A DNA stretch of 64,000 bases from a plasmid, in the sequence record NZ_CP024444.1. One strand, 5' to 3'. Of the stretch, positions 30,415-58,153 are shown in pieces (the first letter of the stretch is position 1; each line of letters begins with the position of its first letter). The notes beneath the pieces were generated by a model. The model ran no database searches. It was not told the DNA's origin and worked only from the letters and a program-made list of their open reading frames with translations. The position numbers and the translations under genes were made by a program.

Positions 30415-30668
30415 ACGTATTTTATAATTAATCAACTTTAAAACTATATTGGTAGTTTTTTACTTGTCCATTCACAGTCACATTGTCTAAGTTGACCGTA
30501 TAGTTTACGCCATACTCAAAGTCAGGGAATAAGAAGGACAGATTATTGGGGACACCCTGGCTTTGAGTGTCAAATAAAATGCCTGTTGGGAGATTGCAAG
30601 AATTTTTGTGTAAACCTAAAAATAGACCCAAATTAGCGATTAGTTAAAAAGCAAACAAATATTCTATA

Positions 30669-31262
30669 TTAATACCCCTCCACCCGATGACCGTATAACA
30701 TCACAAACTGTCTCATTGCAGGTTTCCAATCTTTAATCGGCATCGTCCATTTCTGCATCGTATTGATAAGCGCCATATAAATTGCCTTAAATACCGCATC
30801 ATCATTCGGGAAAGTCTTTTTGGTGCTCGTCACCTTTCTTAAACTGGCATTCAATGATTCAATGGTATTGGTGGTATAAATCACCCGTCTGATGTCTTTG
30901 GGATAATCAAAGAACGTGGTTAATCGCCCCCAGTTTTCTTGCCAGGACTTGGATATCTGTGGATGTTCGCCGTCCCATTTTTCAGCAAAGGCAAGCAAAT
31001 TATCTTCCGCTTCAGCAAGGGTATCCGCCCCGTAAATGGTTTTTAAATCAGTCGCTATTTCTTTTCTTTGTTTATAGCTGACATACTTCAATGAGTTTCT
31101 AACTTGGTGGACAATACACAGTTGAACCTTGGTTTTAGGAAATACCGTTTCAATTGCTTCAGGAAAGCCTTTTAGTCCATCACAGCAGGCAATAAATATA
31201 TCATTAACCCCACGGTTTTTAAGCTCGTTCATTACTGAAACCCAGAACTTGGCCCCCTCATT
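30669..31262 (-). pseudogene. IS256-family transposase, C-terminal fragment.
   Basis: The stretch NEGAKFWVSVMNELKNRGVNDIFIACCDGLKGFPEAI is a conserved block of IS256 (mutator-type) transposases. Confidence 0.8.
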
Positions 31263-31341
31263 CTATAATACTCCCAGAAAATTAGACCAAAAATTCGTAG
31301 CAAATAAGATAGAATAACCTTTAGAAAAAGAGGTCTATCTA

Positions 31342-31632
31342 ATGACAAAAGTTCGTAAACGTCACAATGCTGAATTTAAAAGCAAAGTTGCTGTTGAAGC
31401 AATTAAAGAGCAAAAAACAATCAATGAACTGACCGCAGAATATGGCGTACATGCAACCCAAATCAGCAACTGGAAAAAGCAAGCCTTGGCTGTCATACCA
31501 AGTGCCTTTAACACCAAACAGCAAGACAACGAACAAGCCCAGCAAGCCACTATCGATGAACTGCATCGGCAACTGGGGCAAGTCATTAGCGAGCGAGACT
31601 GGCTTAAAAAAAAGTCCTCACAGCTCGCTTAG
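31342..31632 (+). CDS. IS3-family transposase OrfA (HTH).
   Basis: The start MTKVRKRHNAEFKSKVAVEAIKEQKTINELTAEYGVH is typical of IS3 OrfA. Confidence 0.8.
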   Translation: MTKVRKRHNAEFKSKVAVEAIKEQKTINELTAEYGVHATQISNWKKQALAVIPSAFNTKQQDNEQAQQATIDELHRQLGQVISERDWLKKKSSQLA

Positions 31633-31760
31633 AGGCTCGTAAACAACTGCTAGAGCCTAACAGCAAGGAGTTCAGTACTCGTAAGCAATGTGAGTTACTG
31701 GGTATCAACCGCTCAAGCCTGTATTATCAACCAAAGCCCATCAGCGAGCTTGATATCACC

Positions 31761-32504
31761 TTGATGAACCTGCTTGACAAGCAATATACCAAAGCCCCAT
31801 TTTACGGGGTCAAACGCATGACAGTGTATGTGAGACAATTAGGCTATAATGTCAATCACAAGCGAGTACGCAGACTATTGCGGCAAATGGGGCTAGATGC
31901 CATCTATCAGCGTCCTAACACCAGTAAACCCAATCCTGAGCATCAAGTTTATCCGTATTTGCTTAGAAATGTACCCATTACACGGTGTAATCAGGTATGG
32001 AGTACGGATATCACTTACATCCGCCTGTCTAAGGGCTTCGTTTATTTGATGGCGGTGATTGATTGGTACAGTCGTTATGTCTTGGACTGGTCGCTATCAA
32101 CGACACTTGAAGCAGATTTCTGCATTGATACGGTGGGTAAACTATTGCACAATGGGTTACGCTGTGAGATTTTTAATACGGATCAAGGCTCGCAGTTCAC
32201 CACGCCAAGATTTACCATGCCACTCATTGATTCGGGCATTGCTGTGAGCATGGATGGTCGTGGCAGGGCGTTGGACAATATCTTTGTGGAAAGGCTTTGG
32301 CGGTCAGTAAAATACGAGTGCGTGTATTTACGCCAGTTTGATACAGTCAGTCAAGCCAGAGTTGGTTTGAAAGAATATTTCGAGTTTTACAATCATGAGC
32401 GGTTGCATCAGTCGCTTGATTACCATACCCCTGCACAGGTTTATTTGAACAATAGTTCGGATAATACTGTGCTTTATCAACCCAATTCTATCTTAATTTT
32501 ATAA
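31761..32504 (+). CDS. IS3-family transposase OrfB (DDE integrase core), expressed by a -1 frameshift fusion with OrfA.
   Basis: It contains an rve-type integrase core with WSTDITY, DQGSQF and LDNIFVERLWRSVKYE. Confidence 0.8.
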   Translation: MMNLLDKQYTKAPFYGVKRMTVYVRQLGYNVNHKRVRRLLRQMGLDAIYQRPNTSKPNPEHQVYPYLLRNVPITRCNQVWSTDITYIRLSKGFVYLMAVIDWYSRYVLDWSLSTTLEADFCIDTVGKLLHNGLRCEIFNTDQGSQFTTPRFTMPLIDSGIAVSMDGRGRALDNIFVERLWRSVKYECVYLRQFDTVSQARVGLKEYFEFYNHERLHQSLDYHTPAQVYLNNSSDNTVLYQPNSILIL

Positions 32505-32668
32505 TAATTTGGTCTAGACATTGGGGAGTACCTTACTATTTAATTTAATTAGCACCAAAAATCACAAACGCTTTTTTTAGCACCTGTAAATTTTTTTACC
32601 TTCATAAAGCACTTTTTAATGCTGTTAATCCTATTATTAGCTTGTACTCTAGCATTTTAATAACTGGG

Positions 32669-33403
32669 CTATAAAGTACCCTGAAAATGATAGCGCTCAC
32701 CTGCATACCACATATTGACCACTGTAAGCACTTGGTCTTGCGATAACGTTTTACGGTTTAGCAATAACACCGGCGCACCAACTTCGATAGACAGAGCCTT
32801 TGCGATTACTTTATTCGCCAATTTAGCAGATATGGTGTATTCACCACCTTGTAAAGGCGCATGGGCAATTAAGTACTCACTAGTATTAACTTGGGTAAAA
32901 TCCTGCGCTAAAAAATCGCCTACCTTGCTGTGATTGACCCAACGCTCTTCAAATTGTAAAGGCACGTTGTCCGCAAAATGGATAATCTTTACAGTAGCAA
33001 TTTGGCTTTGATCCTTCTCTACAGGGGTACAAAACTGTGCCTGTATGCTATCAGGCAATTGTGAAAACTCAAGCAATCGTTGCTCCAAAACTTGCGCCTG
33101 ATATAGATGGTCTTGTGCTTGAATATCATGCGCAATATTTCGTATTTCAACAAAAGTGTGACTAAAATGTCGCTGTGTCACAAATGTGCCTGAGCCTTGA
33201 CGTCGCTCAAGCACGTTTTCTTCAGACAATTCCTTTAACGCTCGATTGACCGTCATACGAGACACCCCAAACTGCTGCGCTAAGGTAAGCTCAGGTGCAA
33301 TTGCTTCTCCAGCTTGCCATTCACCTTCATGAATCTTTTGTAAAATCATCTGTTTGATTTGTAGGTAGCGAGGAGTTTTTTTGCTCATTAGTAACAACCA
33401 CAA
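32669..33403 (-). CDS. hutC: GntR-family histidine utilization repressor.
   Basis: It has a GntR HTH (LAQQFGVSRMTVNRALKEL) with a UTRA-type C-terminus, and it lies divergent to hutH. Confidence 0.75.
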   Translation of the reverse strand: MWLLLMSKKTPRYLQIKQMILQKIHEGEWQAGEAIAPELTLAQQFGVSRMTVNRALKELSEENVLERRQGSGTFVTQRHFSHTFVEIRNIAHDIQAQDHLYQAQVLEQRLLEFSQLPDSIQAQFCTPVEKDQSQIATVKIIHFADNVPLQFEERWVNHSKVGDFLAQDFTQVNTSEYLIAHAPLQGGEYTISAKLANKVIAKALSIEVGAPVLLLNRKTLSQDQVLTVVNMWYAGERYHFQGTL

Positions 33404-33587
33404 TATTATTTAACGTAAAAATAGCCTTTGCCAGACTTGGCAAATTGACTTGATATGATACTGAGAAAATAGCAAAAAAAATACTTGCTAAACCAGTTAT
33501 AAGTTGATAATTTGTATATACAAATATTCATTTGTTTCCATTACAAGGACTGAACATGGAAAAAATCAACGATTTCAAGGGGTTAAT

Positions 33588-35144
33588 ATGACTGTGTTAA
33601 CTTTAATAACTGGTAAATTAACCCTTGAACAATTACGCCAAGTCTATGACCAAGACGTAACAATTGAGCTAGTGGCAAGCGCGTATGAGGCGATTGATGC
33701 CTCACGCAAAGCAGTTGAAGCAATCATTGCCAAAGATAAATCGGCTTATGGGATTAATACAGGCTTTGGTTTACTTGCCAAAACGCGTATCAGTGACGAT
33801 GAGCTTGAGCTTTTGCAGCGTAATTTGATTTTGTCACATTCGGTTGGGACTGGTGAGCGCTTACCTGATAATGTGGTACGTTTGATTATGGTGATGAAGG
33901 TTTCAAGCCTTGCACAAGGAATGTCAGGCGTACGACGTGAATTGGTCGATAGCTTATTGGGCATTATCAATCACAATATCATCCCCAACATTCCTGCCAA
34001 AGGCTCGGTAGGCGCATCAGGTGATTTAGCGCCATTGTCACACATGACTTTAGCTATGCTAGGTGAAGGCGAAGTGTTTGTTAATGGCAACAAACTATCT
34101 GCCAAACAAGCACTCAGTGATGCTGGGTTGCAGCCCATTACATTAGCAGCAAAAGAAGGCTTGGCGTTGATCAACGGCACCCAAACCTCAACTGCGCTGA
34201 CGCTACGTGGTTATTTTATGGCGCAAGACTTGGTGGCAACAGCGACGGCGGTTGGCTCGTTATCGATTGATGCTGCTAAAGGCTCGGATGCCCCTTTCGA
34301 TCCACGCATTCATCAAGCGCGTGGACATCATGGACAAATTGAGATTGCCAAAACCCATCGCCAGTTAATTGAAGGCAGTAAAATTCGTGCATCACACCAA
34401 GGCGACAACGATGACCGTGTACAAGACCCTTATTGTTTACGCTGTCAGCCCCAGGTCATGGGTGCATGTCTAGATTTAATCAACCAAGCTGGCAAGACCT
34501 TACTGATTGAAGCCAATGCGGTAACTGATAACCCCTTAATTTTTAGTGATAATAATAATCCTGTGGCGATTTCTGGCGGCAACTTTCACGCTGAGCCAGT
34601 AGCATTTGCTGCTGATATTTTAGCCTTGGCAATTAGTGAAATTGGCTCGATGAGTGAGCGCCGTGTGGCGTTATTGATTGATACCACGTTATCAGGTTTG
34701 CCGCCGTTTTTGGTGAACAACCCTGGCGTCAACTCGGGTTTTATGATTGCGCATGTTACGGCCGCTGCTTTAGCCAGTGAAAACAAATCACACGCCCATC
34801 CTGCGAGTGTTGACAGTATCCCTACGTCTGCCAATCAAGAAGATCATGTATCGATGGCAACCTTTGCTGGTAGACGCTTATTTGAGATGGCGCACAACAC
34901 CGCTACGATTGTCGCAATTGAGTTATTGGCAGCAGCGCAAGGCATAGATTTTCATCAGCAAGACGGTTTGACCACCTCCGCTTATTTACAAGTAGTTTAT
35001 GACAGGCTACGTCAACAAGTCGCCTATTATGATAAAGACCGCTATTTTGCACCTGATATTGAAGCGGCAAAGCAATTGGTGCTCAATGCTGAACTCATTG
35101 ATAATTGGGCGGCATTGCGCGAAAACTGGTTTTTAGCCAACTAA
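33588..35144 (+). CDS. hutH: Histidine ammonia-lyase.
   Basis: It has the MIO-forming [14 protein letters not shown] motif. The start was chosen at the ATG at 33588, which has an RBS. Confidence 0.85.
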
Positions 35145-35176
35145 TCAACATTGTTCACCCATTATAAGGACTTAAT

Positions 35177-36895
35177 ATGGAAAACTTCACCCGCCGTGAC
35201 GAAAGTCGTAACATCTTAGCGCCAACTGGCACGTCATTGACTTGTAAAAGCTGGCTGACTGAAGCGCCTTTTCGCATGATTCAAAACAACCTGCATCCTG
35301 ACGTCGCTGAAAATCCTAAAAGTCTAGTGGTATATGGCGGTATTGGACGTGCGGCGCGAAACTGGGAATGTTATGACCAAATTCTTGCATCATTAAAAGA
35401 ATTGGAAGATAACCAAACTTTGCTGATTCAATCAGGTAAACCAGTGGGTGTGTTTAACACTCACGAAAACGCCCCACGAGTGCTGATTGCCAACTCAAAC
35501 CTTGTGCCGCGTTGGGCGACTTGGGAGCATTTTAATGAGCTTGATCGTAAAGATTTGTTCATGTATGGGCAAATGACGGCAGGTAGCTGGATCTATATTG
35601 GTACTCAAGGGATTGTCCAAGGTACTTACGAAACTTTTGCCGAAGCTGGACGTCAGCACTACCCAAGCGAAACAGGGGATAACTGGAAAGGTCGTTGGAT
35701 TTTGACGGCGGGTCTTGGTGGGATGGGTGGTGCACAACCGCTAGCAGCGACATTTGCTGGTGCCACATCACTTAACATCGAATGCCAACAATCAAGCATC
35801 GATTTTCGCCTACGTACTGGCTACATTGATAAACAAGCGAAAGATTTGAATGATGCTTACCGCTTGATTAAAGAACATACCGAAAAAGGTGAGGCAGTAT
35901 CAATCGCTTTATTAGGTAATGCTGCCGAGATTTTACCTGAGATGGTAAAACGGTCACAAAACGCTTCAGCCAATGAAAAATGGCTTAAACCGGATCTTGT
36001 CACTGACCAAACTTCTGCACATGACTTGATTAATGGTTATTTGCCAATAGGTTGGACGGTTGAAGAATGGAAAGCCGCTCAACAAGACCCAGACCAGCAC
36101 GAACAGCTAAAGAAAGATGCCGCGCGGTCTTGTGCTATCCACGTTGAAGCCATACTGCATTTTCAAGAACTGGGTATCCCAGCCACTGATTATGGCAATA
36201 ATATCCGCCAAGTAGCTTTCGATGAAGGGGTCAAAAATGCCTTTGATTTTCCTGGATTTGTCCCTGCCTATATTCGTCCGCTATTTTGTCAAGGTAAAGG
36301 ACCTTTCCGCTGGGTTGCTTTGTCAGGCGACCCAGAAGATATCTATAAAACTGACCAAAAAATCAAAGAGCTGTTCCCTGACAATAAACACGTCCACAAC
36401 TGGCTTGATATGGCAAAAGACCGCATTCACTTTCAAGGCTTGCCCGCTCGTATCTGTTGGCTAGGCTTAGGGGAGCGGGATAAAGCGGGGCTTGCCTTTA
36501 ACGAGATGGTAAAAAATGGTGAGCTTAAAGCGCCGATTGTCATCGGTCGTGACCACTTGGACACAGGCTCGGTTGCCAGTCCGAACCGTGAAACTGAAAG
36601 CATGAAAGATGGCACTGATGCCGTGTCAGACTGGGCACTGCTGAACGGTATGCTTAACGTGGCAGGTGGCGCAACTTGGGTATCATTACATCACGGTGGT
36701 GGTGTAGGTATGGGCTACTCACAGCATTCAGGCATGGTCATTGTCGCTGACGGTACCGATGCTGCTGCCAAACGTCTTGCCAATGTGTTGGTCAATGATT
36801 GTGGTAGTGGTGTGATGCGTCATGCAGACGCTGGCTATGAGCTTGCCATTGAGACAGCAAAAAATTATGGCCTAAAATTACCCATGATTAAATAA
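35177..36895 (+). CDS. hutU: Urocanate hydratase.
   Basis: Its length and conserved N-terminus and core match urocanase. Confidence 0.85.
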
Positions 36896-37065
36896 GCCCG
36901 ATTACTTAAAAGTCATTTTAGTAAAGTCGTTTTAATGGATTTGTCTTTACTAAATTTAAGATAACCTTAACTCGGGTATTTGGTGGCACGCTTAGTGGTT
37001 TGTTTACTTTATAAGCTCCAAGGCTGCTTTGTTAGTTGACAATGTTTTTATTAAGGAAATCATAT

Positions 37066-37740
37066 ATGCATTATTCACCAAAAAAAGATGGGCCTCGTAG
37101 TCATGGTCTTCCATATGACCCGTTTAAAAGTAGCGCTGTGCCCCGTCCTATCGGCTGGATTTCAACCGTGTCAGCGGATGGTAAACACAATTTAGCCCCC
37201 TATAGCCAATACCAAAATCTGACATGGGATCCACCGATGGTGATGTTTGTTGCCAATCAATCGGTGCTCGACAATGGTAAGAGCCGTAAAGACACGGTGC
37301 GTAATATTGAAGAAACAGGCTGGTTTGTGTGGAATATGGCAACCTACGATTTGCGAGAGGCGGTCAATCGCTCGGCTAAAGCTTTGCCTTATGGCGAAGA
37401 TGAGTTTGAATTTGCTGGTGTCACCAAGGCTAGTTGTCTTGAAGCCCCAGGCGCTAGAGTGGCGGAGTCACCGATTAATTTTGAAATTGAGTTTGTCCAA
37501 TCACTGCATATTCCGACAGGAAATCCTGTTTCTACCTTTGATTTAATCATTGGTCGGGTTGCGCATGTGCATATTAAAGATGAGTTTATTTTAGACGATG
37601 GTAAAATTGATATTTTATCCATTAAGCCTTTGGCGCGCTTGGGTTATTACGATTATACCTATGTGGATAAAATGTTTGAGATGAAAGCACCTGCAGCTAC
37701 GGCTGAAGAGTTAGCTGGTTTAGAAGGTCGTACTGATTAA
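37066..37740 (+). CDS. Protein with a flavin reductase-like FMN-binding split-barrel domain.
   Basis: The stretch RPIGWISTVSADGKHNLAPYSQYQNLTWDPPMVMFV fits the PF01613 pattern. Confidence 0.6.
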   Translation: MHYSPKKDGPRSHGLPYDPFKSSAVPRPIGWISTVSADGKHNLAPYSQYQNLTWDPPMVMFVANQSVLDNGKSRKDTVRNIEETGWFVWNMATYDLREAVNRSAKALPYGEDEFEFAGVTKASCLEAPGARVAESPINFEIEFVQSLHIPTGNPVSTFDLIIGRVAHVHIKDEFILDDGKIDILSIKPLARLGYYDYTYVDKMFEMKAPAATAEELAGLEGRTD

Positions 37741-37853
37741 ATTTTAATTTACTTAGTAAGACATTGGTACGCGATGGCTGATCAAGTATTGATTAAGCGA
37801 TAAGTTAATGCTTGGTCAGCTGATATATTGGTTGTCATTAAAAAGGAATTTCT

Positions 37854-39278
37854 ATGAACCAGCTGTCTACTGATATCCCCAAACAAGCTGTTTCTGCTGT
37901 GAATAGCGGTATTATTGAACACCGTACAATTGATTTTATCCCAGAGTCTGAGCGCCACGGCAGTCTATTTAGCCAGTTTACCTTATGGTTTGGCGCTAAT
38001 TTACAAATTACTGCCATAGTGACTGGGGCATTAGCCGTGGTGCTTGGTGGCGATGTATTTTGGTCAATTATTGGGCTGTTTATAGGTCAGCTATTTGGCG
38101 CATTTGTCATGGCTTTACATGCGGTGCAGGGTCCCAAACTTGGCTTGCCACAGATGATTTCAAGCCGTGTGCAGTTTGGTGTACTTGGCGCAGGTATTCC
38201 GATTGCTCTAGTGTGTGTGATGTACATTGGCTTTATCGCCACAGGGTCGGTGCTGTCGGGGCAAGCCTTATCAAAGCTGTTTAATATCTCCACAAGTATG
38301 GGTATTTTAATTTTTGCAGGGCTAATTATTATCTTTGCATCGCTGGGTTATCGTATTATTCATGTGATGGGGAAGGTCAGTAGTGTTGTTGGCGTATTGT
38401 CGTTTATTTATCTATTTGGGGCGATTTTTGCCAAGTCAGATATTAGCAGTTTACTTGCGGTCAATCATTTTAGCTGGACTTCATTTTTTTTGGCAATTGC
38501 CTTATCGGCTTCTTGGCAGATTTCGTATGGCCCGTATGTGGCGGATTATTCTCGTTATTTGCCCTCAAATACCGATGGCCGCAAGGTATTTTGGTCGGTG
38601 TTTTCGGGGACAGTCATCGGCGCACAGTTGGCGATGATTTTGGGTGTGTTTGTTGCCCAGTTGGCTCAAGGTAGTTTTTTGGGTCATGAAGTCAGCTATA
38701 TGGTAGGGCTGTCGAGTGCAGGGCTGATTGCGGTGTTATTGTATGCCAGTATTGTGGTGGGTAAGCTTACCATGTCTGTGCTAAGTGCGTACGGTAGTTT
38801 TATGTGTATGGCGACAATGGTAAGTGGGGCAAATGCTTCTATTAAATTTACCAAGATGCAGCGGATCGTGGTGGTAATATTGGTAGTTTGTTTTTCTGCA
38901 GGCATTGCACTGGTAGGGCAAGCTGAGTTTTTAAAACTATTTAAGAATTTTATTTTATTTCTTTTAACGTTTTTTATCCCGTGGAGTGCTATCAATCTAG
39001 TCGATTATTATAAAATCTCGAAAGGTCGCTATAATATTGAGGCACTGGGTGATGTCAATGGTCAGTATGGTAAATGGAATTGGGTGGGCTTGGGCTGTTA
39101 TATGGCAGGTATCCTCATTCAGCTTCCGTTTATTGATAGTCCGTTTTTTACAGGGAGCATTGCCAAAGCAGTGGGAGGGCTAGATTTATCATGGCTTGTT
39201 GGGTTGGTAGCAACAGGGATTTTGTATTACTTTCTCGCTAAGCGACAACGTGACAATACCACACTGTTGGTAAATTAA
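37854..39278 (+). CDS. NCS1-family (nucleobase/hydantoin:cation symporter) permease within the hut cluster.
   Basis: It has 12 transmembrane segments and an N-terminal FIPESERHGSLFSQFTLWFGANLQI typical of NCS1. Confidence 0.6.
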   Translation: MNQLSTDIPKQAVSAVNSGIIEHRTIDFIPESERHGSLFSQFTLWFGANLQITAIVTGALAVVLGGDVFWSIIGLFIGQLFGAFVMALHAVQGPKLGLPQMISSRVQFGVLGAGIPIALVCVMYIGFIATGSVLSGQALSKLFNISTSMGILIFAGLIIIFASLGYRIIHVMGKVSSVVGVLSFIYLFGAIFAKSDISSLLAVNHFSWTSFFLAIALSASWQISYGPYVADYSRYLPSNTDGRKVFWSVFSGTVIGAQLAMILGVFVAQLAQGSFLGHEVSYMVGLSSAGLIAVLLYASIVVGKLTMSVLSAYGSFMCMATMVSGANASIKFTKMQRIVVVILVVCFSAGIALVGQAEFLKLFKNFILFLLTFFIPWSAINLVDYYKISKGRYNIEALGDVNGQYGKWNWVGLGCYMAGILIQLPFIDSPFFTGSIAKAVGGLDLSWLVGLVATGILYYFLAKRQRDNTTLLVN

Positions 39279-39476
39279 AGATTGGGTAGCCCATCAAAAA
39301 GTATGCTGAATAAAAACAGGCTGAAACATTGATAGAAGTTAGTATTTTTTATATCAATAATGGATCTGCTTGACGTCAGCATATTTTTTAAAGCCCATCA
39401 AATAACAAATGTGACCTAAAAACTCTGACAACCGCACAATTATTGACAATGAGTTTAGCATAATTGGAAAAATAAC

Positions 39477-40508
39477 ATGGCACATGTGGAAGTAACCGAG
39501 TATAACCCAGACCTTTACACAGGACGCGCCGAGCCTTACGAGTCAAGTGTTGCTCAATACTGGTATCAACATATTAAGGCATTTAATAGCGACCAACCGA
39601 AAAAAATTGGCTTAGTAGGGTTTGCCTCCGATCAGGGGGTTAACCGTAACCAAGGACGTATTGGTGCGAAATACGCCCCTGATGCCATCAAAGCCGCCCT
39701 CGCCAAATTACCCGTGCCTTTATCAATCCAGAAACAAGGTGAAAAACTAACAAACTTAACAAACTTGGTCGGAGATATGGGCAATGTCGCTTGTGTTGAC
39801 GATGATACGATTGTCCCCGAAATTTTGGAATCGGCTCAACAGACTTATGCCAATCAAATCACTCATATCCTTGCTCAACATAGTCTTGCTATTGGCTTAG
39901 GGGGTGGACATGAAATCGCCTATGGCAGTTTTATGGGACTATGGCAGCATCTTACACAGACTGAAATAACCCTACCTACTATCGGCATTATCAATATTGA
40001 TGCCCATTTTGACTTACGTCAAGACCAGTATGCCACTTCTGGCACGCCTTTTCGCCAAATATCGGAACTTTTAGCTGAGCAACATCAAGATTTTTATTAT
40101 TTGTGTGTGGGTATTAGCCAGTTTGCTAACACAGCGGCTTTGTTTGAGCGAGCCGAAAACTTAAGTGTAAAAACAATTAGTGATGATGATTGTCATCGCC
40201 TTGACTGGTTCGCAATTGAACAGCAAATTTTAAATTTTATCGCCCCGCTTGAAGTGATTTATTTAACGATCGATATGGATGCTTTATCGGGATTTGTCAT
40301 GCCAGCCGTGAGTGCGGTGGCGGCAAAGGGTTTGAGCCTTGATTTTGTTGAGCGCTGCGTGTCGCTGATTATTGGTACTGGCAAAGTCAAGCTAATTGAT
40401 ATGGCAGAAGTCAGTCCGAAGTTTGATATCGATGGGCGAGGACTGAAAGTAGCCAGTCGTTTGCTTGCATTGATGATTGAACAGGTTTTAACTCTTACTA
40501 ACCCCTAA
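39477..40508 (+). CDS. hutG: Formimidoylglutamase (arginase family).
   Basis: It contains GGGHEIAYGS, NIDAHFDLR and DMDALS metal-binding motifs. Confidence 0.8.
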   Translation: MAHVEVTEYNPDLYTGRAEPYESSVAQYWYQHIKAFNSDQPKKIGLVGFASDQGVNRNQGRIGAKYAPDAIKAALAKLPVPLSIQKQGEKLTNLTNLVGDMGNVACVDDDTIVPEILESAQQTYANQITHILAQHSLAIGLGGGHEIAYGSFMGLWQHLTQTEITLPTIGIINIDAHFDLRQDQYATSGTPFRQISELLAEQHQDFYYLCVGISQFANTAALFERAENLSVKTISDDDCHRLDWFAIEQQILNFIAPLEVIYLTIDMDALSGFVMPAVSAVAAKGLSLDFVERCVSLIIGTGKVKLIDMAEVSPKFDIDGRGLKVASRLLALMIEQVLTLTNP

Positions 40509-40523
40509 TATAGGCAGGAAACG

Positions 40524-50399: not shown

Positions 50400-52043
50400 T
50401 TATCTTTCCAAAGTTTTGCATAATGAACAAACGACACCATTGTGTTTATGAGAGTACATCACATCAGGGCGTTCATAATGCTCATTGCAGATCACACAAT
50501 GGTAGAGTGTCGCAACTGGCGCACCTTCAGCATCATATCTTGGTTCACTAATCCCATCATCAGTCGACTTAAGATAATATTTTCCTTTAGTGATAATTGC
50601 CATAATTGGCGTTAAAACAAAACCTACAACCAGAGCAATAATTGGTGAGTACGGAGCTAAAGTGTCACCTAAAAGCCCGAAGAAAGCGGCAATCGATAAT
50701 ATTGCAGATAAACCAAATGCAACCATACCGACAGGGTTAAAATCGTATAACATGCCTCGACGATATTCTGGTAATTTTGGTGAAAGTTTTAGTAGATATT
50801 TATTAATCGCAATATCGGTAGCTACAACTACCACCCAGGCAATTGCAAAATTTGAATAAAATCCTAAAATTTTATTTAAAAAAGCAAACATATCCATTTC
50901 CATCAGTAATAGTGCAATACCAACATTAAATATCAAAAAAATGATGCGGCCTGGATAATGTTTAGTCACCCTTGTGTACGCACTGGTCCAAGATAAAGAA
51001 CCAGAGTAAGCATTTGTCACATTAATTTTAACCTGAGACAAAATAACTAATAATACTGCGAGCACAATTGCTAACTTTCCGTTAATCATATCGCTATACA
51101 TGGCAGTGAATTGATGCACAGGCTCAGTTAATACATTATTAGGCATTGCTTTAGTCATTAAGTAAAATGCTAAGAAAGCCCCCGTGATTTGTTTTAAAGC
51201 ACCTAAAATAACCCAGCCCGGACCTGCAGATAGCATTGCTATCCACCAAGATTTATTATTTTCTTTAGTTTTAGCAGGCATAAAACGTAAGTAATCAATT
51301 TGTTCACCAATTTGCATAATCAATGAAAGACAGACACCTGCACCTAGCATAATCAAAGGTAAACTAAAACCTGTTGTCTTACTATTTCCATTAAATTGAA
51401 ACCATTGATCTATTAGGCCAGGATTTTTCAACACCAAATATACAACGGGTCCCACCATTAAAACTAACCAAAAGGGGGTCGTCCAAACTTGAAGTTTGCT
51501 CAGGGCTTTCATGCCATAAATAACTAACGGAATAATTAACACACTTGAAAGAATATAACCAAGCCATAAAGGGATACCTAAACCAAGCAATAACCCTTGT
51601 GCCATAATCGCCCCTTCAAGCGCGAAAAAAATAAAGGTGAAGCTTGCAAAAATGATACTGGTTATGACTGTGCCATAATAACCAAAGCCTGCACCACGAG
51701 AGATCAAATCCAAATCAATGTTGTAGCGAGCTGCATAGAATGACAAAGGTATACCTGTCAAAAAGATAATAATTGCGGCAAACAAGATGGCGAAAACCGC
51801 ATTGATAGTTCCGTAAGAGATACCAATACTTGCGCCAATGGAGAAATCGGCTAGATATGCAATACCACCAAGTGCAGTAATCGCAACTACTTGGGGCGTC
51901 CATTTACGAAAGCTGTAGGGAGCGTATCTTAAAGTATAATCTTCTAAAGTTTCATTAACTGCTCTTGCAGCATCAGCTTCTTCAGAATGAGTATTTAACT
52001 CATTCAAAGGCCTTATAGTAGACGATGAATTATAATCTTTCAT
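50400..52043 (-). CDS. Polytopic permease with a C-terminal zinc ribbon, adjacent to the formamidase gene (putative amide transporter).
   Basis: It has 12 or more transmembrane helices and a C-terminal YHCVICNEHY...CSLCKTL. It is divergent from fmdA. Confidence 0.45.
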   Translation of the reverse strand: MKDYNSSSTIRPLNELNTHSEEADAARAVNETLEDYTLRYAPYSFRKWTPQVVAITALGGIAYLADFSIGASIGISYGTINAVFAILFAAIIIFLTGIPLSFYAARYNIDLDLISRGAGFGYYGTVITSIIFASFTFIFFALEGAIMAQGLLLGLGIPLWLGYILSSVLIIPLVIYGMKALSKLQVWTTPFWLVLMVGPVVYLVLKNPGLIDQWFQFNGNSKTTGFSLPLIMLGAGVCLSLIMQIGEQIDYLRFMPAKTKENNKSWWIAMLSAGPGWVILGALKQITGAFLAFYLMTKAMPNNVLTEPVHQFTAMYSDMINGKLAIVLAVLLVILSQVKINVTNAYSGSLSWTSAYTRVTKHYPGRIIFLIFNVGIALLLMEMDMFAFLNKILGFYSNFAIAWVVVVATDIAINKYLLKLSPKLPEYRRGMLYDFNPVGMVAFGLSAILSIAAFFGLLGDTLAPYSPIIALVVGFVLTPIMAIITKGKYYLKSTDDGISEPRYDAEGAPVATLYHCVICNEHYERPDVMYSHKHNGVVCSLCKTLER

Positions 52044-52173
52044 TTTATATGCCCTCTCATTAACTATGGTTGATATAGCAAAAAAGAATATTCAAAAATG
52101 ATGCCAATTTTAAGTTGGCATAATTTTTGAATAACGTATTCTGCAAGTTCATCAACAAAGAAAGAGGCACAAA

Positions 52174-53418
52174 ATGACAGAAACACTAATTAAAATTGAT
52201 ATTAACCAATCACCTTATGAAAATGAAAATATCCATAATCGTTGGCACCCAGACATTCCTATGGCTGTAAGTGTTAAACCAGGCGATGATTTTATCGTAG
52301 AATGTTATGAATGGACGGGCGGACAAATTCAGAATAATGACAGTGCTGAAGACGTAAGAGACGTTGATCTTACGAAAGTCCATTTCTTATCTGGTCCAAT
52401 TGAAGTAGAAGGTGCTGAGCCAGGTGATTTGTTAGAAGTTGATATTATGGACATTGGTACATTAGCAGAAAGCCAATGGGGGTTTAATGGATTCTTTTCT
52501 AAAGAAAACGGCGGTGGTTTTCTAACAGAACATTATCCAGAAGCACAAAAATCTATTTGGGATTTTAATGGTATTTATACTAAATCTCGTCATATTCCTG
52601 GTGTTGAATTTGCAGGTATTATTCATCCTGGGTTAATTGGTACTATGCCGTCTCATGAGATGTTAAAAGAGTGGAATGACCGTGAAAAGGAATTATATGA
52701 TACTGATCCTAATCGCGTTCCAGGGTTAGTAAATCTTCCGTTTGCTAAAACTGCTCACATGGGAAAATTGCAGGGTTCAGAGAAAGAATCTGCAGCTGCA
52801 ACGGCAGCTCGTACTGTTCCCCCTCGTGAAAATGGTGGCAACTGTGACATTAAAGATCTTACAAAAGGGGCGAAGATCTATTTTCCGGTTTATGTGAAGG
52901 GCGCAGGCTTATCAGTAGGCGACTTGCACTTTAGCCAAGGTGATGGAGAGATTACCTTTTGCGGTGCAATTGAGATGGCAGGTTGGATTCATTTAAGAGT
53001 TAATTTGGTCAAAAATGGTATGGAAAAATATGCTATTAAAAATCCAATCTTTAAACCAAGTCCCTTAACGCCAAATTACAATGATTATTTGATTTTTGAA
53101 GGTGTTTCTGTTGATGAGCAAGGTAAACAGCATTACCTAGATGTACAAGTTGCTTACCGTCAAGCCGTATTAAATGCCATCGAATACTTGAAGAAATTTG
53201 GTTATAGCGGTGCACAAGCTTATTCTTTATTGGGGTGTGCACCAATTCAAGCACATATTAGTGGCGTAGTGGATGTGCCAAATGCTTGTGCGACGTTATG
53301 GCTACCTACAGAAATATTTGACTTTGATATTAATCCTGGTGCGAATAAACCTGAGAAAAATCCAAAAGATATTTCTGATCTACCGTTAGCAATAAATCCG
53401 CCACAAATTAAATCATAA
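52174..53418 (+). CDS. fmdA: Formamidase/acetamidase of the FmdA_AmdA family.
   Basis: Its length of about 410 aa and N-terminal block KIDINQSPYENENIHNRWHPDIP are characteristic of the family. Confidence 0.7.
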   Translation: MTETLIKIDINQSPYENENIHNRWHPDIPMAVSVKPGDDFIVECYEWTGGQIQNNDSAEDVRDVDLTKVHFLSGPIEVEGAEPGDLLEVDIMDIGTLAESQWGFNGFFSKENGGGFLTEHYPEAQKSIWDFNGIYTKSRHIPGVEFAGIIHPGLIGTMPSHEMLKEWNDREKELYDTDPNRVPGLVNLPFAKTAHMGKLQGSEKESAAATAARTVPPRENGGNCDIKDLTKGAKIYFPVYVKGAGLSVGDLHFSQGDGEITFCGAIEMAGWIHLRVNLVKNGMEKYAIKNPIFKPSPLTPNYNDYLIFEGVSVDEQGKQHYLDVQVAYRQAVLNAIEYLKKFGYSGAQAYSLLGCAPIQAHISGVVDVPNACATLWLPTEIFDFDINPGANKPEKNPKDISDLPLAINPPQIKS

Positions 53419-53573
53419 ACTTATAAGCTAATGCTATGAGTATTAAATAAAATTTATATTTCCTTATTATGCTATTTAATAAATATTATTGAATAGCATT
53501 CTTTTTCGAATGATTAGTAATATTAATTTAGATCTTTTGCTATTAATAATATTATTTTGAAAGGTAATTTATC

Positions 53574-53894
53574 ATGCCGGTATATGATTATAAATGTCCA
53601 AAACATGGAATATTTCACGAACTTGGTGAAATAAAGTTAGCAGGTACACCAAAACAGTGCCCTAAATGCCAAACCACGAGTCCTCAAATAATTATGATGC
53701 CCCCTGTGTACCTAGATATGGATGCGGATAAGAAAAAAGCCTGTGCATGTAATGAACGAGCTCAGCATGCTCCTTTAAAAAGCTCACAGCTTCTCAGACC
53801 TGATTCGTCAATGAGTAAAAGTAAAAATACTTTAATTCACCCGGATGGAACCAAAACAATTCCAAACCAAAGGCCTTGGATGATTAGTCATTAG
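53574..53894 (+). CDS. fmdB: FmdB-family zinc-ribbon putative regulatory protein.
   Basis: MPVYDYKCPKHG...CPKCQ is the FmdB-type zinc ribbon, and the gene lies downstream of fmdA. Confidence 0.6.
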   Translation: MPVYDYKCPKHGIFHELGEIKLAGTPKQCPKCQTTSPQIIMMPPVYLDMDADKKKACACNERAQHAPLKSSQLLRPDSSMSKSKNTLIHPDGTKTIPNQRPWMISH

Positions 53895-54146
53895 TAAAAT
53901 GAACCATGCATATAGGGCGGTAAGTACATTTGTCGAATATTTTTAAGTATCTTTTACTTGTCTAAAAAACGAAGGTTTTTTGGACAATTTTTTTACCCTC
54001 AAAAAACGACCGCTTTTCTATAGTTTGTTGAATAAAAACCCGTCTAAAAAACAACGTTAAAATAACCCTCTAGAAATTGCTTTTTATATAGTTCTGGCTC
54101 ATACTAACCTTATACTTTTTGTTCTCACTGTCAAACAGGAGAAGTT

Positions 54147-54416
54147 ATGTTAGATATATTAACGGTGAGCAACCACTACCCAGATCGGCCGAATGTCCTT
54201 GTGCTGACTGATAGTCTATTGGCAGAGCTTAATCTGGCCAACAATACAAAGTTGTCTATCGTGAAGCACGATAATGGAGTTATTGAACTTGTGCCTGTGT
54301 CCGAACACAGCAAAGGTGATATTCGCCGTCTCAAAGGGTTGGTGAAAACTAACATAACCGCCAGTATCGATGAGATGAATGACGGCATTGCAATGGGTGC
54401 GATTCATGGAGAGTAG
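54147..54416 (+). CDS. vapB: VapB-type antitoxin with an AbrB/SpoVT-like domain.
   Basis: It is a small protein that overlaps the PIN toxin gene by 11 nt. Confidence 0.6.
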   Translation: MLDILTVSNHYPDRPNVLVLTDSLLAELNLANNTKLSIVKHDNGVIELVPVSEHSKGDIRRLKGLVKTNITASIDEMNDGIAMGAIHGE

Positions 54417-54819
54417 TGCTGAGCTTATTGGTATTGATACCAACGTACTGGCTCGTTATCTTGTTCAGGATGATCAAGAACAAGCTGAGCAAGCCAGTGC
54501 ATTTCTTGAAAGCCTAAATGCGCATAAAAAGGGCTATATCTCCGTCATTGTGTTGATAGAGCTGATTTGGTTACTAAGACGTGTCTATAACCAATCTCGC
54601 AGTCAAGTGGCGATGATCTTGGATGAGTTATTGGCGATTGATACATTGGTGTTTGAACATCAGGCATTGGTGTTACAAGCACTGGCTATTTATCACACCA
54701 TGTCATCAGATTTTTCTGATCTTCTAATTCACAAGATTAATCAACAACAAGGTTGTGTGTATACGGTCACCTTTGATAAAGGGGCGGTCAATAAAGCAGG
54801 TATGACCAAATTACAATAG
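54406..54819 (+). CDS. vapC: VapC PIN-domain toxin.
   Basis: IGIDTNVLARYL provides the first PIN Asp, and the size fits VapC. Confidence 0.65.
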   Translation: MESSAELIGIDTNVLARYLVQDDQEQAEQASAFLESLNAHKKGYISVIVLIELIWLLRRVYNQSRSQVAMILDELLAIDTLVFEHQALVLQALAIYHTMSSDFSDLLIHKINQQQGCVYTVTFDKGAVNKAGMTKLQ

Positions 54820-54835
54820 GATTAATCTCAGCTAT

Positions 54836-55402
54836 ATGAAAATCGGTTACGCTCGAACATCCACCATTGACCAAAACTTAGATTTGCAACTTGATGCACT
54901 CACCCAAGCAGGCTGTGAGAAGGTCTATCAAGAAAAAATATCCTCTGTTAACGATCATCGATCTGAACTAGAGAACTGCCTTAAGGCCTTGCGTGAAGGC
55001 GATACATTATATATTTGGCGGCTAGACCGCTTGGGCCGTAGCCTAAAAGAATTAATCAGTCTGGTTAATCAGCTACAAGAGATGGGCTGTGAGTTGGTAT
55101 CGATTAAAGAGAATATCGATACCAGTACACCAACTGGTAAGCTTGCCTTTCATTTATTTGCGTCATTGGCAGAGTTTGAACGTGAACTGATTCGAGAACG
55201 TACTCAAGCAGGGATATTGTCAGCAAGAGCTAGAGGGCGTATGGGCGGACGGCCTCAGAAACTTACCGATACAGAGAAAGTCATGATTCGTCAGCTGATG
55301 AGTGACCGAAGTAACTCACCAACTGACATTGCCAAACGCTTTGGGGTGAGTCGGGCAACGGTTTATAGTGTGACTAAAGAAGTTGAAATGGCTAAGTCTT
55401 AA
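54836..55402 (+). CDS. Serine recombinase (resolvase/invertase family).
   Basis: It has MKIGYARTSTIDQ with the catalytic Ser, a resolvase core and a C-terminal HTH. Confidence 0.8.
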   Translation: MKIGYARTSTIDQNLDLQLDALTQAGCEKVYQEKISSVNDHRSELENCLKALREGDTLYIWRLDRLGRSLKELISLVNQLQEMGCELVSIKENIDTSTPTGKLAFHLFASLAEFERELIRERTQAGILSARARGRMGGRPQKLTDTEKVMIRQLMSDRSNSPTDIAKRFGVSRATVYSVTKEVEMAKS

Positions 55403-55549
55403 TTCTGAACAAATAGGTAAACAATTTATCGAGTGAACCTTTGAGCGTTTTTTAAAAAGATTGGCTACAGGTAAAGTTGTCCTTATCATGGACAGAACCA
55501 ACTGACAATTTAGCAAACATGATATCAATATCCTCATGCTTTCCATTGT

Positions 55550-56025
55550 TCACAGATCTGCTTTTTTTTGATCATCAAACCCAGACTTAAATTTTTTGTA
55601 CTCAATTTCCACCCATTGATTGACGAGTAGTTTGATCGACATTCGATTTACTTTAGCCATCTCTTCTAGATATGGCATTTTTTTTTGTAGAATCTCAACC
55701 GTTCGGTCTTCCAAAGTTCTTTTTCTAGATTCTCTGTTCTTACCAACAGCCACCCGATTCTTATATTTATCGATATAATGCTGTCGATTCTGCTTGAAAA
55801 TTTCTGGAATGGTCTTCTCGGCAAAAGTCATTTCAAGTTCAATATTTGGAAAACTCATATCTGAATATTGTTCAATTTGGTGCAGGTAGTTTTCATCATA
55901 AAAAAATGGATTATGGTAAAGGTCTCGATTGAAGTTTATTTGATCATCTACAAAAATTATAATGCCCTTATTGATATAAACTGTATATGTTCCCTCAAGT
56001 AAACAGATGCTCGTAGTATAATACT
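55550..56025 (-). pseudogene. Hypothetical gene whose 5' end is replaced by the IS3 copy 3 left end.
   Basis: The tracked ORF (to 56101) begins inside the IS, so the first 25 codons are IS-derived. Confidence 0.4.
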
Positions 56026-56094
56026 CCCCGAAAACTAGACCAAAAAATTGTAGCAAATAAGATAGAATAGCCCTTAAGAAAAGAGGTCTATCTA

Positions 56095-56385
56095 ATGACA
56101 AAAGTTCGTAAACGTCACAATGCTGAATTTAAAAGCAAAGTTGCTGTTGAAGCAATTAAAGAGCAAAAAACGATCAATGAGCTGACTGCTGAATACGGTG
56201 TTCATGCAACCCAAATCAGCAACTGGAAAAAGCAAGCCTTGGCTGTTATACCAAGTGCCTTTAACACCAAACAGCACGACAACGAACAAGCCCAGCAAGC
56301 TATTATTGATGAACTGCATCGGCAGCTTGGGCAAGTCATTAGCGAGAGGGACTGGCTTAAAAAAAAGTCCTCACAGCTCACTTAG
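56095..56385 (+). CDS. IS3-family OrfA, copy 3.
   Basis: It is nearly identical to the OrfA of copies 1 and 2. Confidence 0.75.
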   Translation: MTKVRKRHNAEFKSKVAVEAIKEQKTINELTAEYGVHATQISNWKKQALAVIPSAFNTKQHDNEQAQQAIIDELHRQLGQVISERDWLKKKSSQLT

Positions 56386-56513
56386 AGTCTCGTAAACAAC
56401 TGCTAGAACCTGACAATAAGGATTTCAGTACCCGTAAACAATGCGAACTGCTCGGTATTAACCGCTCAAGCCTGTACTATCAGCCAAAGCCCATCAGTAA
56501 GCTTGATATCACC

Positions 56514-57256
56514 TTGATGAACTTGCTTGACGAACAATATACCAAAGCCCCATTTTACGGGGTTAAACGCATGACAGCGTATTTGAGACAATTAGGCTAT
56601 CAAGTGGGAGAAAAACGAGTTAGGCGACTGCTACGGCAAATGGGGCTAGATGCCATCTACCAGCATCCTAACACGAGTAAGCCGAATCCCGAGCATCAAG
56701 TTTACCCGTATTTGCTTAGAAATGTACCCATCACCCGCTGTAACCAAGTGTGGAGTACCGATATCACATACATTCGCCTGTCTAAAGGGTTTGTGTATTT
56801 GATGGCGGTGATTGATTGGTACAGCCGTTATGTTTTAGGTTGGTCGCTATCTACCACGCTTGAGGCAGATTTCTGCATTGATACGGTGGGTAAATTACTG
56901 CACAATGGGTTACGCTGTGAGATTTTTAATACCGACCAAGGTTCGCAGTTTACCAGTCCAAGATTTACCACGCCACTCATTGATTCGGGCATTGCTGTAA
57001 GCATGGACGGTCGTGGCAGGGCGTTGGATAATCTCAAGTAGAAAGACTGTGGCGATCAGTAAAGTACGAATGCGTGTATTTACGCCAGTTTGATACGGTC
57101 AGTCAAGCCAGAGTTGGTTTGAAAGACTATTTTGAGTTTTACAATTATGAGCGGTTGCATCAGTCGCTTGATTACCATACCCCTGCACAGGTTTATTTAA
57201 ACAATAGTTCGGTTAATCCTGTGATTTATCAACCCAATTCTATCTTAATTTTGTGA
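56514..57256 (+). pseudogene. IS3-family OrfB, copy 3, interrupted by a stop codon.
   Basis: It is split into two ORFs, 56514-57041 and 57074-57256. Confidence 0.7.
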
Positions 57257-57265
57257 TTATTTGGT

Positions 57266-58060
57266 CTAGACATTGGGGAGTACCTTATTCTTGGCAATCC
57301 AAAGACCGAGCAATTCTTTACGCCCTTCAGTATTAATGCCAAGCGCAAGGTAAACACATTTATTATGAGCAATACCTTCTTCTCGATTTTTAACCACCAA
57401 TCCGTCAAGATAGACGACAGGGTAAATCGGTTCAAGTGGACGCTGTTGCCATTGTTTGACTTCATCCAGTACGCTGTCGGTGACGGTGGAGATAAAGGTA
57501 GATGAAACGTCAACGCCATAGATTTCTTTTAAATGCGCTTGAATGTCACGGGTGCTCATGCCTCGGGAATATAGGGAGATGACCTTATCATCAAAGCCGT
57601 TTAGGGTGCGTTCATGCTTTTTAACAAATTGTGGCTCGAAGCTGCCTGCTCGATCCCTTGGTACGTCAAGTTCTATTTTACCAAAGTCAGTACGGATGGT
57701 TTTTTTAGTGGTGCCGTTACGGGCATTGCTATTCTTACGAGCGGGTTTGCCTGCAAGTGATACGGTTTCTTCGCTTATGGTACTAGGCTGGATAGTTTCT
57801 TCTTCAGCTGATGGCTGTTCGTCCTCAAGCCAATCATTTTTAGGTTCATGATTGATGAAGTCATCAAGCGTTTCTTTATTAGCTTTGCTTTGGTAGTCGT
57901 GTTTGGCGTAGCCAAGATGATGGGTCATTTCGGCTTGTAAGGCTCGTTCGGCAAGTCGTTTAGTGAGTTGTTTTAAGATACCGTTTTCACCCAAGATTTG
58001 TTCGGGTGTTTGGTAGTCTTTTAAGAGTTCGTCAAGCAAAACTTCTGTTGATTCTTTCAT
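57266..58060 (-). pseudogene. IS256-family transposase, N-terminal fragment.
   Basis: It ends ...LGLWIAKN and is then read through into the IS3 end, giving KVLPNV*. Confidence 0.8.
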
Positions 58061-58153
58061 GTAAATATTCCTGTGTAAGTCCTGGTGTTAAAATTGGGTT
58101 TACACAAAATATTTTACAGTCTCCAATCGCCTAAAATAATTAGCCTTAAATAT

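Follow-up and report, generated by a model that had tools for sequence, protein, structure and literature searches.

Mobilisation of neighbouring strAB, tetH and bla modules has been reported for the insertion sequence (IS) ISPpy1 (PMC4224046). The region analysed here is a 26-kb array bounded by ISPpy1-like copies of the IS3 family, and it lies in a 64,000-nucleotide stretch of plasmid DNA (sequence record NZ_CP024444.1; this whole stretch is called the window below). The array is a compound-transposon-like, IS-bounded accretion region, and it comes closest to the resistance modules that ISPpy1 mobilises in Psychrobacter plasmids, such as those of pKLH80 (Petrova et al. 2009, 2014, as cited in PMC4224046). 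The two have in common the IS lineage (86% nucleotide identity), a Moraxellaceae host, and IS copies that bracket antibiotic-resistance genes on plasmids. The array differs in having three copies that are 8-10% apart, a 26-kb cargo that is mostly metabolic (hut, formamidase), and an IS as its target. Its mobilisation, unlike that described for ISPpy1, is putative. The ISPpy1 composite of pKLH80 is reportedly named Tn5080.

Two further systems are comparable. In ISApl1-mcr-1-ISApl1 (Tn6330; PMC5821093), copies of one IS on either side captured a chromosomal locus and took it to a plasmid, and mcr-1 itself is thought to derive from Moraxella. As in the origin of Tn6330, the native IS-free locus (here hut) is still found. 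On the same source, Tn6330 differs in that its IS belongs to IS30 rather than IS3, with another duplication length, two near-identical copies and a 2.6-kb cargo. The pseudo-compound arrays and translocatable units of IS26 (PMC5024762) are alike in that direct multi-copy IS arrays subdivide resistance regions and the outer duplication is kept while modules join at a resident IS. IS26, however, adds units through its own transposase (by a cointegrate or conservative route), whereas an IS3-family analogue would need host homologous recombination. The array is a real but ordinary mobile-DNA mosaic, of a kind that is already known.

An IS256-family transposase gene split by a 26-kb insert

We observed that the array, an insert of 26,024 bp, lies inside an IS256-family transposase gene. 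Three direct copies of the ISPpy1-like IS3 element (c1, c2 and c3) bound and subdivide it, in the order c1, a hut module, c2, segment C (aph(3'), a chromosomal fragment, an IS3b-aac(3)-I-IS5 unit and an fmd module) and c3. The 3' part of the IS256-family element (30589-31263, minus strand) contains the C-terminal 187 amino acids (aa) of the transposase and one terminal inverted repeat, while the 5' part (57291-58124, minus strand) contains the N-terminal part and the other repeat. Both were delimited by inverted-repeat alignment and rejoining. The terminal inverted repeats, at 30589 and 58124, are imperfect and about 27 bp long. When position 31263 is joined to 57291, we obtain a 1,509-bp element with a single 454-aa open reading frame (ORF; ...LGLWIAKN/EGAKFW..., the slash marking the joint), and the perfect rejoining described in the original prediction was therefore borne out.

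The rejoined protein scored 430 bits against the NCBIfam IS256 model (cutoff 150), and Pfam PF00872 was found on each half. One Mutator-type ORF and inverted repeats are present, as in the IS256 family. Full-length public homologues are 452-457 aa long, 92-96% identical, and match across the joint. Since one of these (P0005, 93% identity) has the same residues through LGLWIAKNEGAKFWVSVMNELKNRGV, no residue was lost or gained at the joint. The transposase gene is inactivated by the insertion.

The IS3 copies abut the two halves, c1 starting at 31264 and c3 ending at 57287, as had been noted. The same prediction gave the target duplication as a 4-bp ATTC at 31260-31263 and 57287-57290. These letters are present at both places; however, the 4-bp length was rejected, because the A at 57287 is the terminal A common to all three IS3 copies (...CCTTA) and because sister copies make 3-bp duplications. 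Of 14 complete Moraxella-type copies of this IS collected from genome and metagenome contigs, eight are flanked by a perfect 3-bp duplication (GTA, TAG, TTA, GAA, AAT, GTG, AGG, AAC) and none by a 4-bp one. The true duplication is TTC, with its left copy at 31261-31263 and its right copy at 57288-57290 (flank comparison). It had also been proposed that the match would be coincidental if other copies made 3-bp duplications and the two IS256 halves belonged to different alleles. The 3-bp duplications were indeed found elsewhere, but different alleles were not: the two halves are 95.2% and 95.1% identical to the reference copy in L070, and since they are equally distant from it, an origin from different alleles is disfavoured. 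(Numbers with the prefix L, such as L047 or L050, denote public genome or metagenome contigs that were compared with the window, and P0005 is a public protein homologue.)

The inner flanks are CTA after c1, AAC before c2, GTT after c2 and TAG before c3. None of them pairs with another as a direct repeat, in line with the original prediction that neither c1, c2 nor c3 has a paired duplication on its inner sides. The reverse-complement matches among them (CTA with TAG, AAC with GTT) were treated as chance, as each is native sequence at an insertion site.

From these observations, we conclude that one IS3-type transposition, as read from the outer flanks, put the left end of c1 and the right end of c3 into the IS256-family element. 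The TTC duplication shows one insertion of IS3 ends and is not proof that all 26 kb moved together. The original prediction had held that everything between the repeats moved as one unit. This does not follow, since the hut, fmd, aac(3) and chromosomal-fragment modules each occur separately in other samples. The cargo is, by these occurrences, a patchwork of modules circulating separately.

Three divergent copies of an ISPpy1-like IS3 element

All three copies are on the plus strand. Copies c1 (31264-32535) and c2 (42170-43441) are 1272 bp long, and c3 (56017-57287) is 1271 bp long, as delimited by repeat alignment and ORFs. The element ends in TATAATACTCCC... and ...GGGGAGTACCTTA. OrfA of c1 has 96 aa, and OrfB of c2 scored 243 bits against NCBIfam IS3 (cutoff 160). 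A -1 frameshift motif, A AAA AAA AG (A8G), stands in phase and would give a 387-aa OrfAB in both c1 and c2. In c3, a 1-bp deletion ends OrfAB at 315 aa, directly before the VERLW segment, which we take, by analogy with other IS3-family transposases, to hold the catalytic Glu. The orfA/orfB pair with its frameshift motif, the DDE integrase-like OrfB, the inverted repeats and the 3-bp duplications are all as in the IS3 family. The nearest named relatives of c1 are the 'IS3-like element ISPpy1 family' elements of Psychrobacter plasmids (86% identity), and ISPpy1-like copies in M. osloensis plasmids show 88-93% identity. Within the 64-kb window, there were no further copies of either this IS3 or the IS256-family element.

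The three copies are not near-identical. Pairwise identity is 92.2% for c1 and c2, 90.0% for c1 and c3, and 89.9% for c2 and c3, with the differences spread along the full length and a longest identical run between c1 and c3 of 93 bp. When aligned to other alleles of the IS, each copy is a mosaic. A clear case is c1 when compared with an allele found in L061, L065 and L067 (96% identical overall), from which it has 0 differences at 666-1239 and 47 at 13-665. The left flank of this allele is common to L061 and L067, its right flank is common to L061 and L065, and only in L061 is it surrounded by a matching duplication (AGG). We regard this swapping of flanks as direct evidence that copies of this IS undergo recombination or deletion in natural populations. 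Since alleles are mosaic and flanks are swapped, recombination among copies of this IS appears to be common in the species, and since c1-c3 are themselves divergent mosaics, later recombination inside them is plausible.

Occurrence of the junctions in other samples

Independent contigs confirm six of the eight internal junctions, namely c1 with hutC, hutI with c2, repeat copy a with aph, aph with the native fragment, the hypothetical gene with c3, and c3 with IS256. The junctions of IS256 with c1 and of c2 with the 171-bp repeat are without independent public support. Apart from the window, the c3-IS256 junction was seen in just one public contig, the Logan contig SRR19237212_21 (L047; 100% over 1,062 bp), and was absent from JGI metagenomes. 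L047 reaches just 28 bp into the IS3 and could equally represent a single-IS3 form of the IS256 insertion. The left junction, IS256 with c1, was absent from the genome and metagenome contig collections. In a protein search, neither the small ORF spanning the left junction nor the c3-specific ORFs were on record.

Route by which the array arose

Three routes (movement en bloc, a single IS3 insertion followed by recombination, and a mixture of the two) all fit every flank. The first is put only slightly ahead of the second, with a probability of about 0.45; on this view, the array had been put together elsewhere before a single event brought it in as a compound transposon. ISPpy1-like copies did land on both sides of useful genes in M. 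osloensis, two of them around the chromosomal hut operon and another in a gene next to the fmdAB-vapBC-resolvase module. The pre-assembled array would then have moved in one step into the IS256-family element on a pMOXF1-like megaplasmid, with c1 or c2 supplying the transposase (since the gene of c3 is broken) that acted on the two outer ends, left of c1 and right of c3. The flanks inside the array (CTA, AAC, GTT and TAG) would be left-over halves of older duplications from the first insertion of each IS, and later recombination may have added or removed some inner features, for example the aph segment between the 171-bp repeats. In favour of the en bloc route, IS256 is exactly restored, the duplication has the length made by this IS, the outer ends are intact and aligned, and OrfAB is intact in c1 and c2. 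Every inner flank is native sequence at a known site (CTA and AAC at the hut locus, TAG at the empty site in the hypothetical gene, GTT in a 260-bp segment), as is predicted for left-over half-duplications. The structure is also that of a compound transposon: copies of the same IS bracket the cargo, the outer inverted repeats are intact, an OrfAB is predicted to be possible in c1 and c2, and a duplication of the usual length, TTC, stands on both sides with the target restored on removal. This route needs one event, as against one transposition plus two crossovers between ISs 10% apart, and it agrees with the mobilisation of resistance modules reported for ISPpy1, the nearest named relative (PMC4224046). 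Several observations weigh against it. Movement as a unit would be expected to leave the 26-kb array at a second site, and no such site was found in the genome and metagenome collections. The IS copies share only 90-92% identity, and their mosaicism points to frequent recombination among copies; textbook compound transposons carry near-identical IS copies. The flanks of one allele are swapped among L061, L065 and L067, and sample SRR19237212 shares the c3-IS256 junction but seems to be without the exact aph, the exact APH being found only in SRR19742207. Synapsis of two ends 26 kb apart, with four internal ends skipped, should also be rare.

An alternative, which we put almost level with the first route and likewise short of even odds, is that a single IS3 inserted into IS256 (giving TTC) and that the cargo was loaded later by homologous recombination with module-flanking IS3 copies on another replicon. 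Both this and the composite transposon had been offered in the original prediction, and both stand. An excised circle would have integrated, or a cointegrate would have formed and then been resolved, and natural transformation may have helped. In that case, c1 and c3 would be hybrids, with the left part of c1 and the right part of c3 derived from the resident copy. The clear mosaic structure of c1, the swapped flanks and the separate circulation of the modules all agree with this, as does the fact that module-adjacent ISs elsewhere match only in their module-proximal part (L055 matches c1 753-1272, L056 matches c2 1-257, L053 matches c2 1-119 and L080 matches c3 1-95). However, metagenome contig ends could be assembly chimeras within repeats, and gene conversion among IS copies could yield mosaics with the flanks unmoved. 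More events are needed than for movement en bloc, and c1 and c3, 10% apart over their full length with at most 93 identical bp in a row, would be poor partners for RecA-dependent exchange. A set of 15 database alleles was also compared with rebuilt reciprocal chimeras, c1[1:x]+c3[x:] and c3[1:x]+c1[x:]; no sharp optimum was seen, the best rebuilt allele being 39 differences from the L061 allele as against 50 for c1. It is less likely still that the hut unit alone (c1, hut and the IS on its right) transposed into IS256 and that an IS3-bearing circle added segment C later, creating c2 and c3. The c1-hut-c2 unit does recur with the same junctions in several metagenome contigs, and most contigs with an identical HutU are 5-10 kb long, which fits a 10-kb repeat-bounded unit, but at no site did a contig show a hut unit flanked by a duplication of its own, and the objections to recombination between divergent copies hold likewise. 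Finally, repeats could have been collapsed or mis-joined in the source genome, and two junctions do lack independent public support. We consider such an artefact very improbable because six of the eight internal junctions are present in independent contigs; in addition, the repeats are 8-10% different and easily resolved, and a mis-join would not be expected to reconstitute IS256 exactly.

The hut module between c1 and c2

The histidine-utilisation locus (module B, 32536-42169, plus strand) was identified by NCBIfam equivalogs and by its match to a native locus. It contains hutC (32669-33388, minus strand) and, on the plus strand, hutH (33588-35144), hutU (35177-36895), a flavin reductase gene (about 37066-37740), an NCS1-type permease gene (37854-39278), hutG (39477-40508) and hutI (40527-41756). 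HutC, HutH, HutU, HutI and HutG are all above their curated NCBIfam equivalog cutoffs, so the names given earlier to this part of the cargo hold, and together they make up a predicted hut operon with a repressor and four enzymes. The module is 99.98% identical, over exactly 32536-42169 (9.6 kb), to L050 and L052, which continue into other genes and where the native junctions read GACA/CTA... and ...AAC/TGC. On this match, module B is an exact excerpt of the native M. osloensis chromosomal hut locus.

No plasmid in PLSDB carries the hut module. The c1-hut-c2 unit recurs with the same junctions in the metagenome contigs L053 and L055-L057, and the hutI-c2 junction is present in L053, L055 and L056. 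Most of the contigs with identical HutU have the 5-10 kb length expected of a 10-kb unit bounded by repeats. We also observed that, in L053 and L054, a second IS3-family type lies inside hutC, which would remove the repressor.

The patchwork between c2 and c3

Segment C (43442-56016) is a patchwork. Besides c1-c3, the cargo includes a second IS3-family element, an IS5 and IS fragments, which had not been listed before. Directly abutting c2 is copy a of a 171-bp repeat (43442-43612, plus strand), a truncated second copy of a native 260-bp segment with a REP-like hairpin end, found by repeat alignment. It is followed by 884 bp of foreign DNA with 66% guanine plus cytosine (GC) that carries aph(3') (43613-44496, plus strand; coding sequence 43622-44437; GC profile and NCBIfam). 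A 2-kb fragment of the M. osloensis chromosome (44497-46543, minus strand) opens with the 260-bp segment, which contains copy b of the repeat (44586-44756). The native sodB-side context in L099 and L100 matches this fragment at 99% identity, and the fragment carries, on the minus strand, a gene for a small Fe-S protein (44724-44969; Pfam FeS domain) and one for an endonuclease/exonuclease/phosphatase-family protein (45120-46217). Since the fragment opens with that segment, the 'direct repeats' around aph are two copies of the native 260-bp segment, copy a being cut by c2. The idea that the 171-bp repeats are IS ends or a long target duplication was therefore rejected.

The APH(3') protein scored 283 bits against the NCBIfam APH(3') model (cutoff 205) and is predicted to belong to that family; against the APH(3')-I model it scored 374 bits, below the cutoff of 400, so that it is not placed in the subfamily. 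It is 52% identical to APH(3')-Ia (PDB 4FEU). Elsewhere, the exact protein was found in just one public contig, L078 (sample SRR19742207). REP-like hairpins (GTAG, then GGTGCG...CGCACC) at 43590-43610, 44506-44526 and 44734-44754 bracket the foreign aph DNA in inverted orientation, and contigs from other samples (L078, L104 and L105) end exactly at the hairpins around aph. The position of the aph segment at the joint between two copies of the native 260-bp segment, bracketed by these hairpins, suggests that it was acquired by recombination on short repeats.

Following the chromosomal fragment is an IS-related fragment (46544-46924, minus strand) with a match to the IS66-family/transposase region of NZ_CP047227.1; its 100-aa ORF (46555-46857) gave no Pfam match. 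Next is IS3b (46925-48489, plus strand), a second IS3-family element unrelated to c1-c3, with orfA at 47045-47386 and orfB at 47362-48453, the OrfB scoring 190 bits against NCBIfam IS3 (cutoff 160). Then comes a 763-bp aac(3)-I segment (48490-49252, plus strand; coding sequence 48761-49237) and an IS5-family element (49288-50166, minus strand) recognised by database matches, with ORFs at 49300-49665 and 49796-50098. The AAC(3)-I protein scored 215 bits against NCBIfam AAC(3)-I (cutoff 200), which predicts membership of that family, and is 56% identical to the AAC3-I structure PDB 5HMN. With both scores above curated cutoffs, the aph(3') and aac(3)-I-like assignments of the original prediction proved sound. 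The unit at 46925-50171 (IS3b, aac(3)-I and IS5) is also present in L095 at 96% identity. Large NCBI genome records in L089-L094, which we take from their accessions to be Acinetobacter, contain segments with 99.5% identity to the 763-bp segment. In several of these records, the exact 158-aa AAC(3)-I-like protein occurs together with an integrase-like gene fragment in two or three copies per genome, and the gene there looks like part of a multi-copy element.

The fmd module (50167-56016, plus strand) was delimited by Pfam and NCBIfam matches and by its recurrence in L079-L088. It includes a gene for a 547-aa membrane protein (50400-52043, minus strand), fmdA (52174-53418, plus strand), fmdB (53574-53894, plus strand), a small ORF with a PIN-domain vapC as a candidate toxin pair (54147-54819, plus strand), a serine recombinase gene recognised by domain search (54836-55402, plus strand), and a 5'-truncated hypothetical gene that abuts c3 (55550-56016, minus strand). 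FmdA is above its NCBIfam cutoff, the VapC candidate has its PIN domain and the recombinase is present, which agrees with the names fmdAB, vapBC and serine recombinase as first assigned. An IS3 stands at the same TAG site as c3 in L080, L082-L084 and L086, and the site is empty (...CGTAG/TGATGC...) in L081 and L085. In L080, a further IS insertion lies in the permease gene of the module. The 547-aa protein is a multi-pass membrane protein with a C-terminal Cys-rich tail, and its gene adjoins fmdA. It gave no Pfam or NCBIfam family match, while relatives of its gene on Acinetobacter plasmids (72% nucleotide identity) are annotated as allantoin permease.

Plasmid setting and the surroundings of the IS256-family element

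On either side of the feature, the sequence matches pMOXF1, a 248-kb plasmid of Moraxella osloensis (CP040258.1), with 98-99% identity on the left and 94-97% on the right. Since both flanks match, the window is most likely part of a pMOXF1-like megaplasmid. Window positions 30477-58123 occupy the place of a 2.5-kb pMOXF1 gene (836-aa hypothetical protein). Without its insert, it is the IS256-family element plus 112 bp (30477-30588) that stand in for this gene; a database search with the 112 bp, which separate the pMOXF1 homology from the IS256 end, gave no useful match. An IS256-family element is expected to be surrounded by an 8-9-bp target duplication. No such duplication is present here, the flanks CAACAGGCATTT and TTTTAGGCGATT being different. 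Because this duplication is absent and the pMOXF1 gene is replaced, the rearrangement suggests that an IS256-associated deletion or replacement preceded or accompanied the arrival of the element.

To the right of the array, at 58322-59570, we observed an ISAba23-like IS5-family element with a 5-bp duplication (GTATA) that is 99% identical to Acinetobacter copies. Its insertion site is empty in pMOXF1 and L047, and the insertion suggests recent IS traffic between Acinetobacter and Moraxella. Rfam gave no RNA families in window positions 28000-60000.

A hairpin repeat in sister IS256 copies

The 187-aa C-terminal ORF of the IS256-family element is unchanged in hundreds of public assemblies. We read ten such loci (L068-L077). 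In these, the IS256 copy shows 92-96% identity to the rejoined element and is unsplit by IS3, and a 62-bp GC-rich hairpin segment replaces the Glu codon of WIAKN-E-GAKFW (for example at L070 5915-5976), 1-4 bp from the site of the IS3 duplication in the window. The hairpin repeat (60-63 nucleotides, GC-rich, roughly ACTCGAGCAYAGCTCTCGCCTTGCACTCGGGCGAAGCNNTGCTTCGCTATTYCCTCGYTCA) was found at 63 places in 29 Moraxella and Psychrobacter plasmids; it is not present in the 64-kb window, and Rfam gave no match for it. About 14 distinct sites were examined, representing about eight independent site types, and all of them were inside IS3- or IS256-family elements.

The repeat often lies at conserved motifs of the catalytic region of the transposase, and some copies are in frame. 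It occupies the same motif in two different IS256-family elements; in that of pNP7-3, it is in frame and the annotated protein includes it (...LYCSES[PLEHSSRLALGRSDASLFPCS]GANYW...). In three different IS3-family elements it stands just before the (Y/W)DNA motif, in frame in two of them, while antisense copies are near orfA ends or gene 3' ends. Copies were located in L115 (1801-1861), L116 (1798-1860 and 2025-2086), L117 (1797-1858), L118 (20001-20061 and 19578-19638) and L119 (20001-20060, 32664-32726, 38107-38169 and 19249-19308), and also in L007, L036, L058, L026 and L059. A stem change, GCGAAGC/GCTTCGC against GCAAAGC/GCTTTGC, is compensatory, which supports a conserved hairpin. The repeat recalls the Rickettsia palindromic elements, which are in-frame inserts. 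It is conceivable, if rather doubtful, that the IS256 codon is a shared landing site for mobile DNA, that the hairpin is an undescribed selfish element homing to transposase genes, and that the IS3 insertion in the window reflects the same hotspot.

Implications

In M. osloensis, a commensal found on skin and in the environment, a complete catabolic operon (hut) has passed from the chromosome to a megaplasmid. The same IS-bounded region holds two little-known predicted aminoglycoside-resistance genes, those for APH(3') (52% to APH(3')-Ia) and AAC(3)-I. For annotation, the case carries a caution, as the target duplication that surrounds a region with several ISs dates a single insertion and not the arrival of all its contents. 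Several public metagenome contigs, including at least one from human skin, also contain the IS3-flanked hut and fmd modules, and because of this recurrence, the ISPpy1-like ISs seem to act as portable joints for module exchange.

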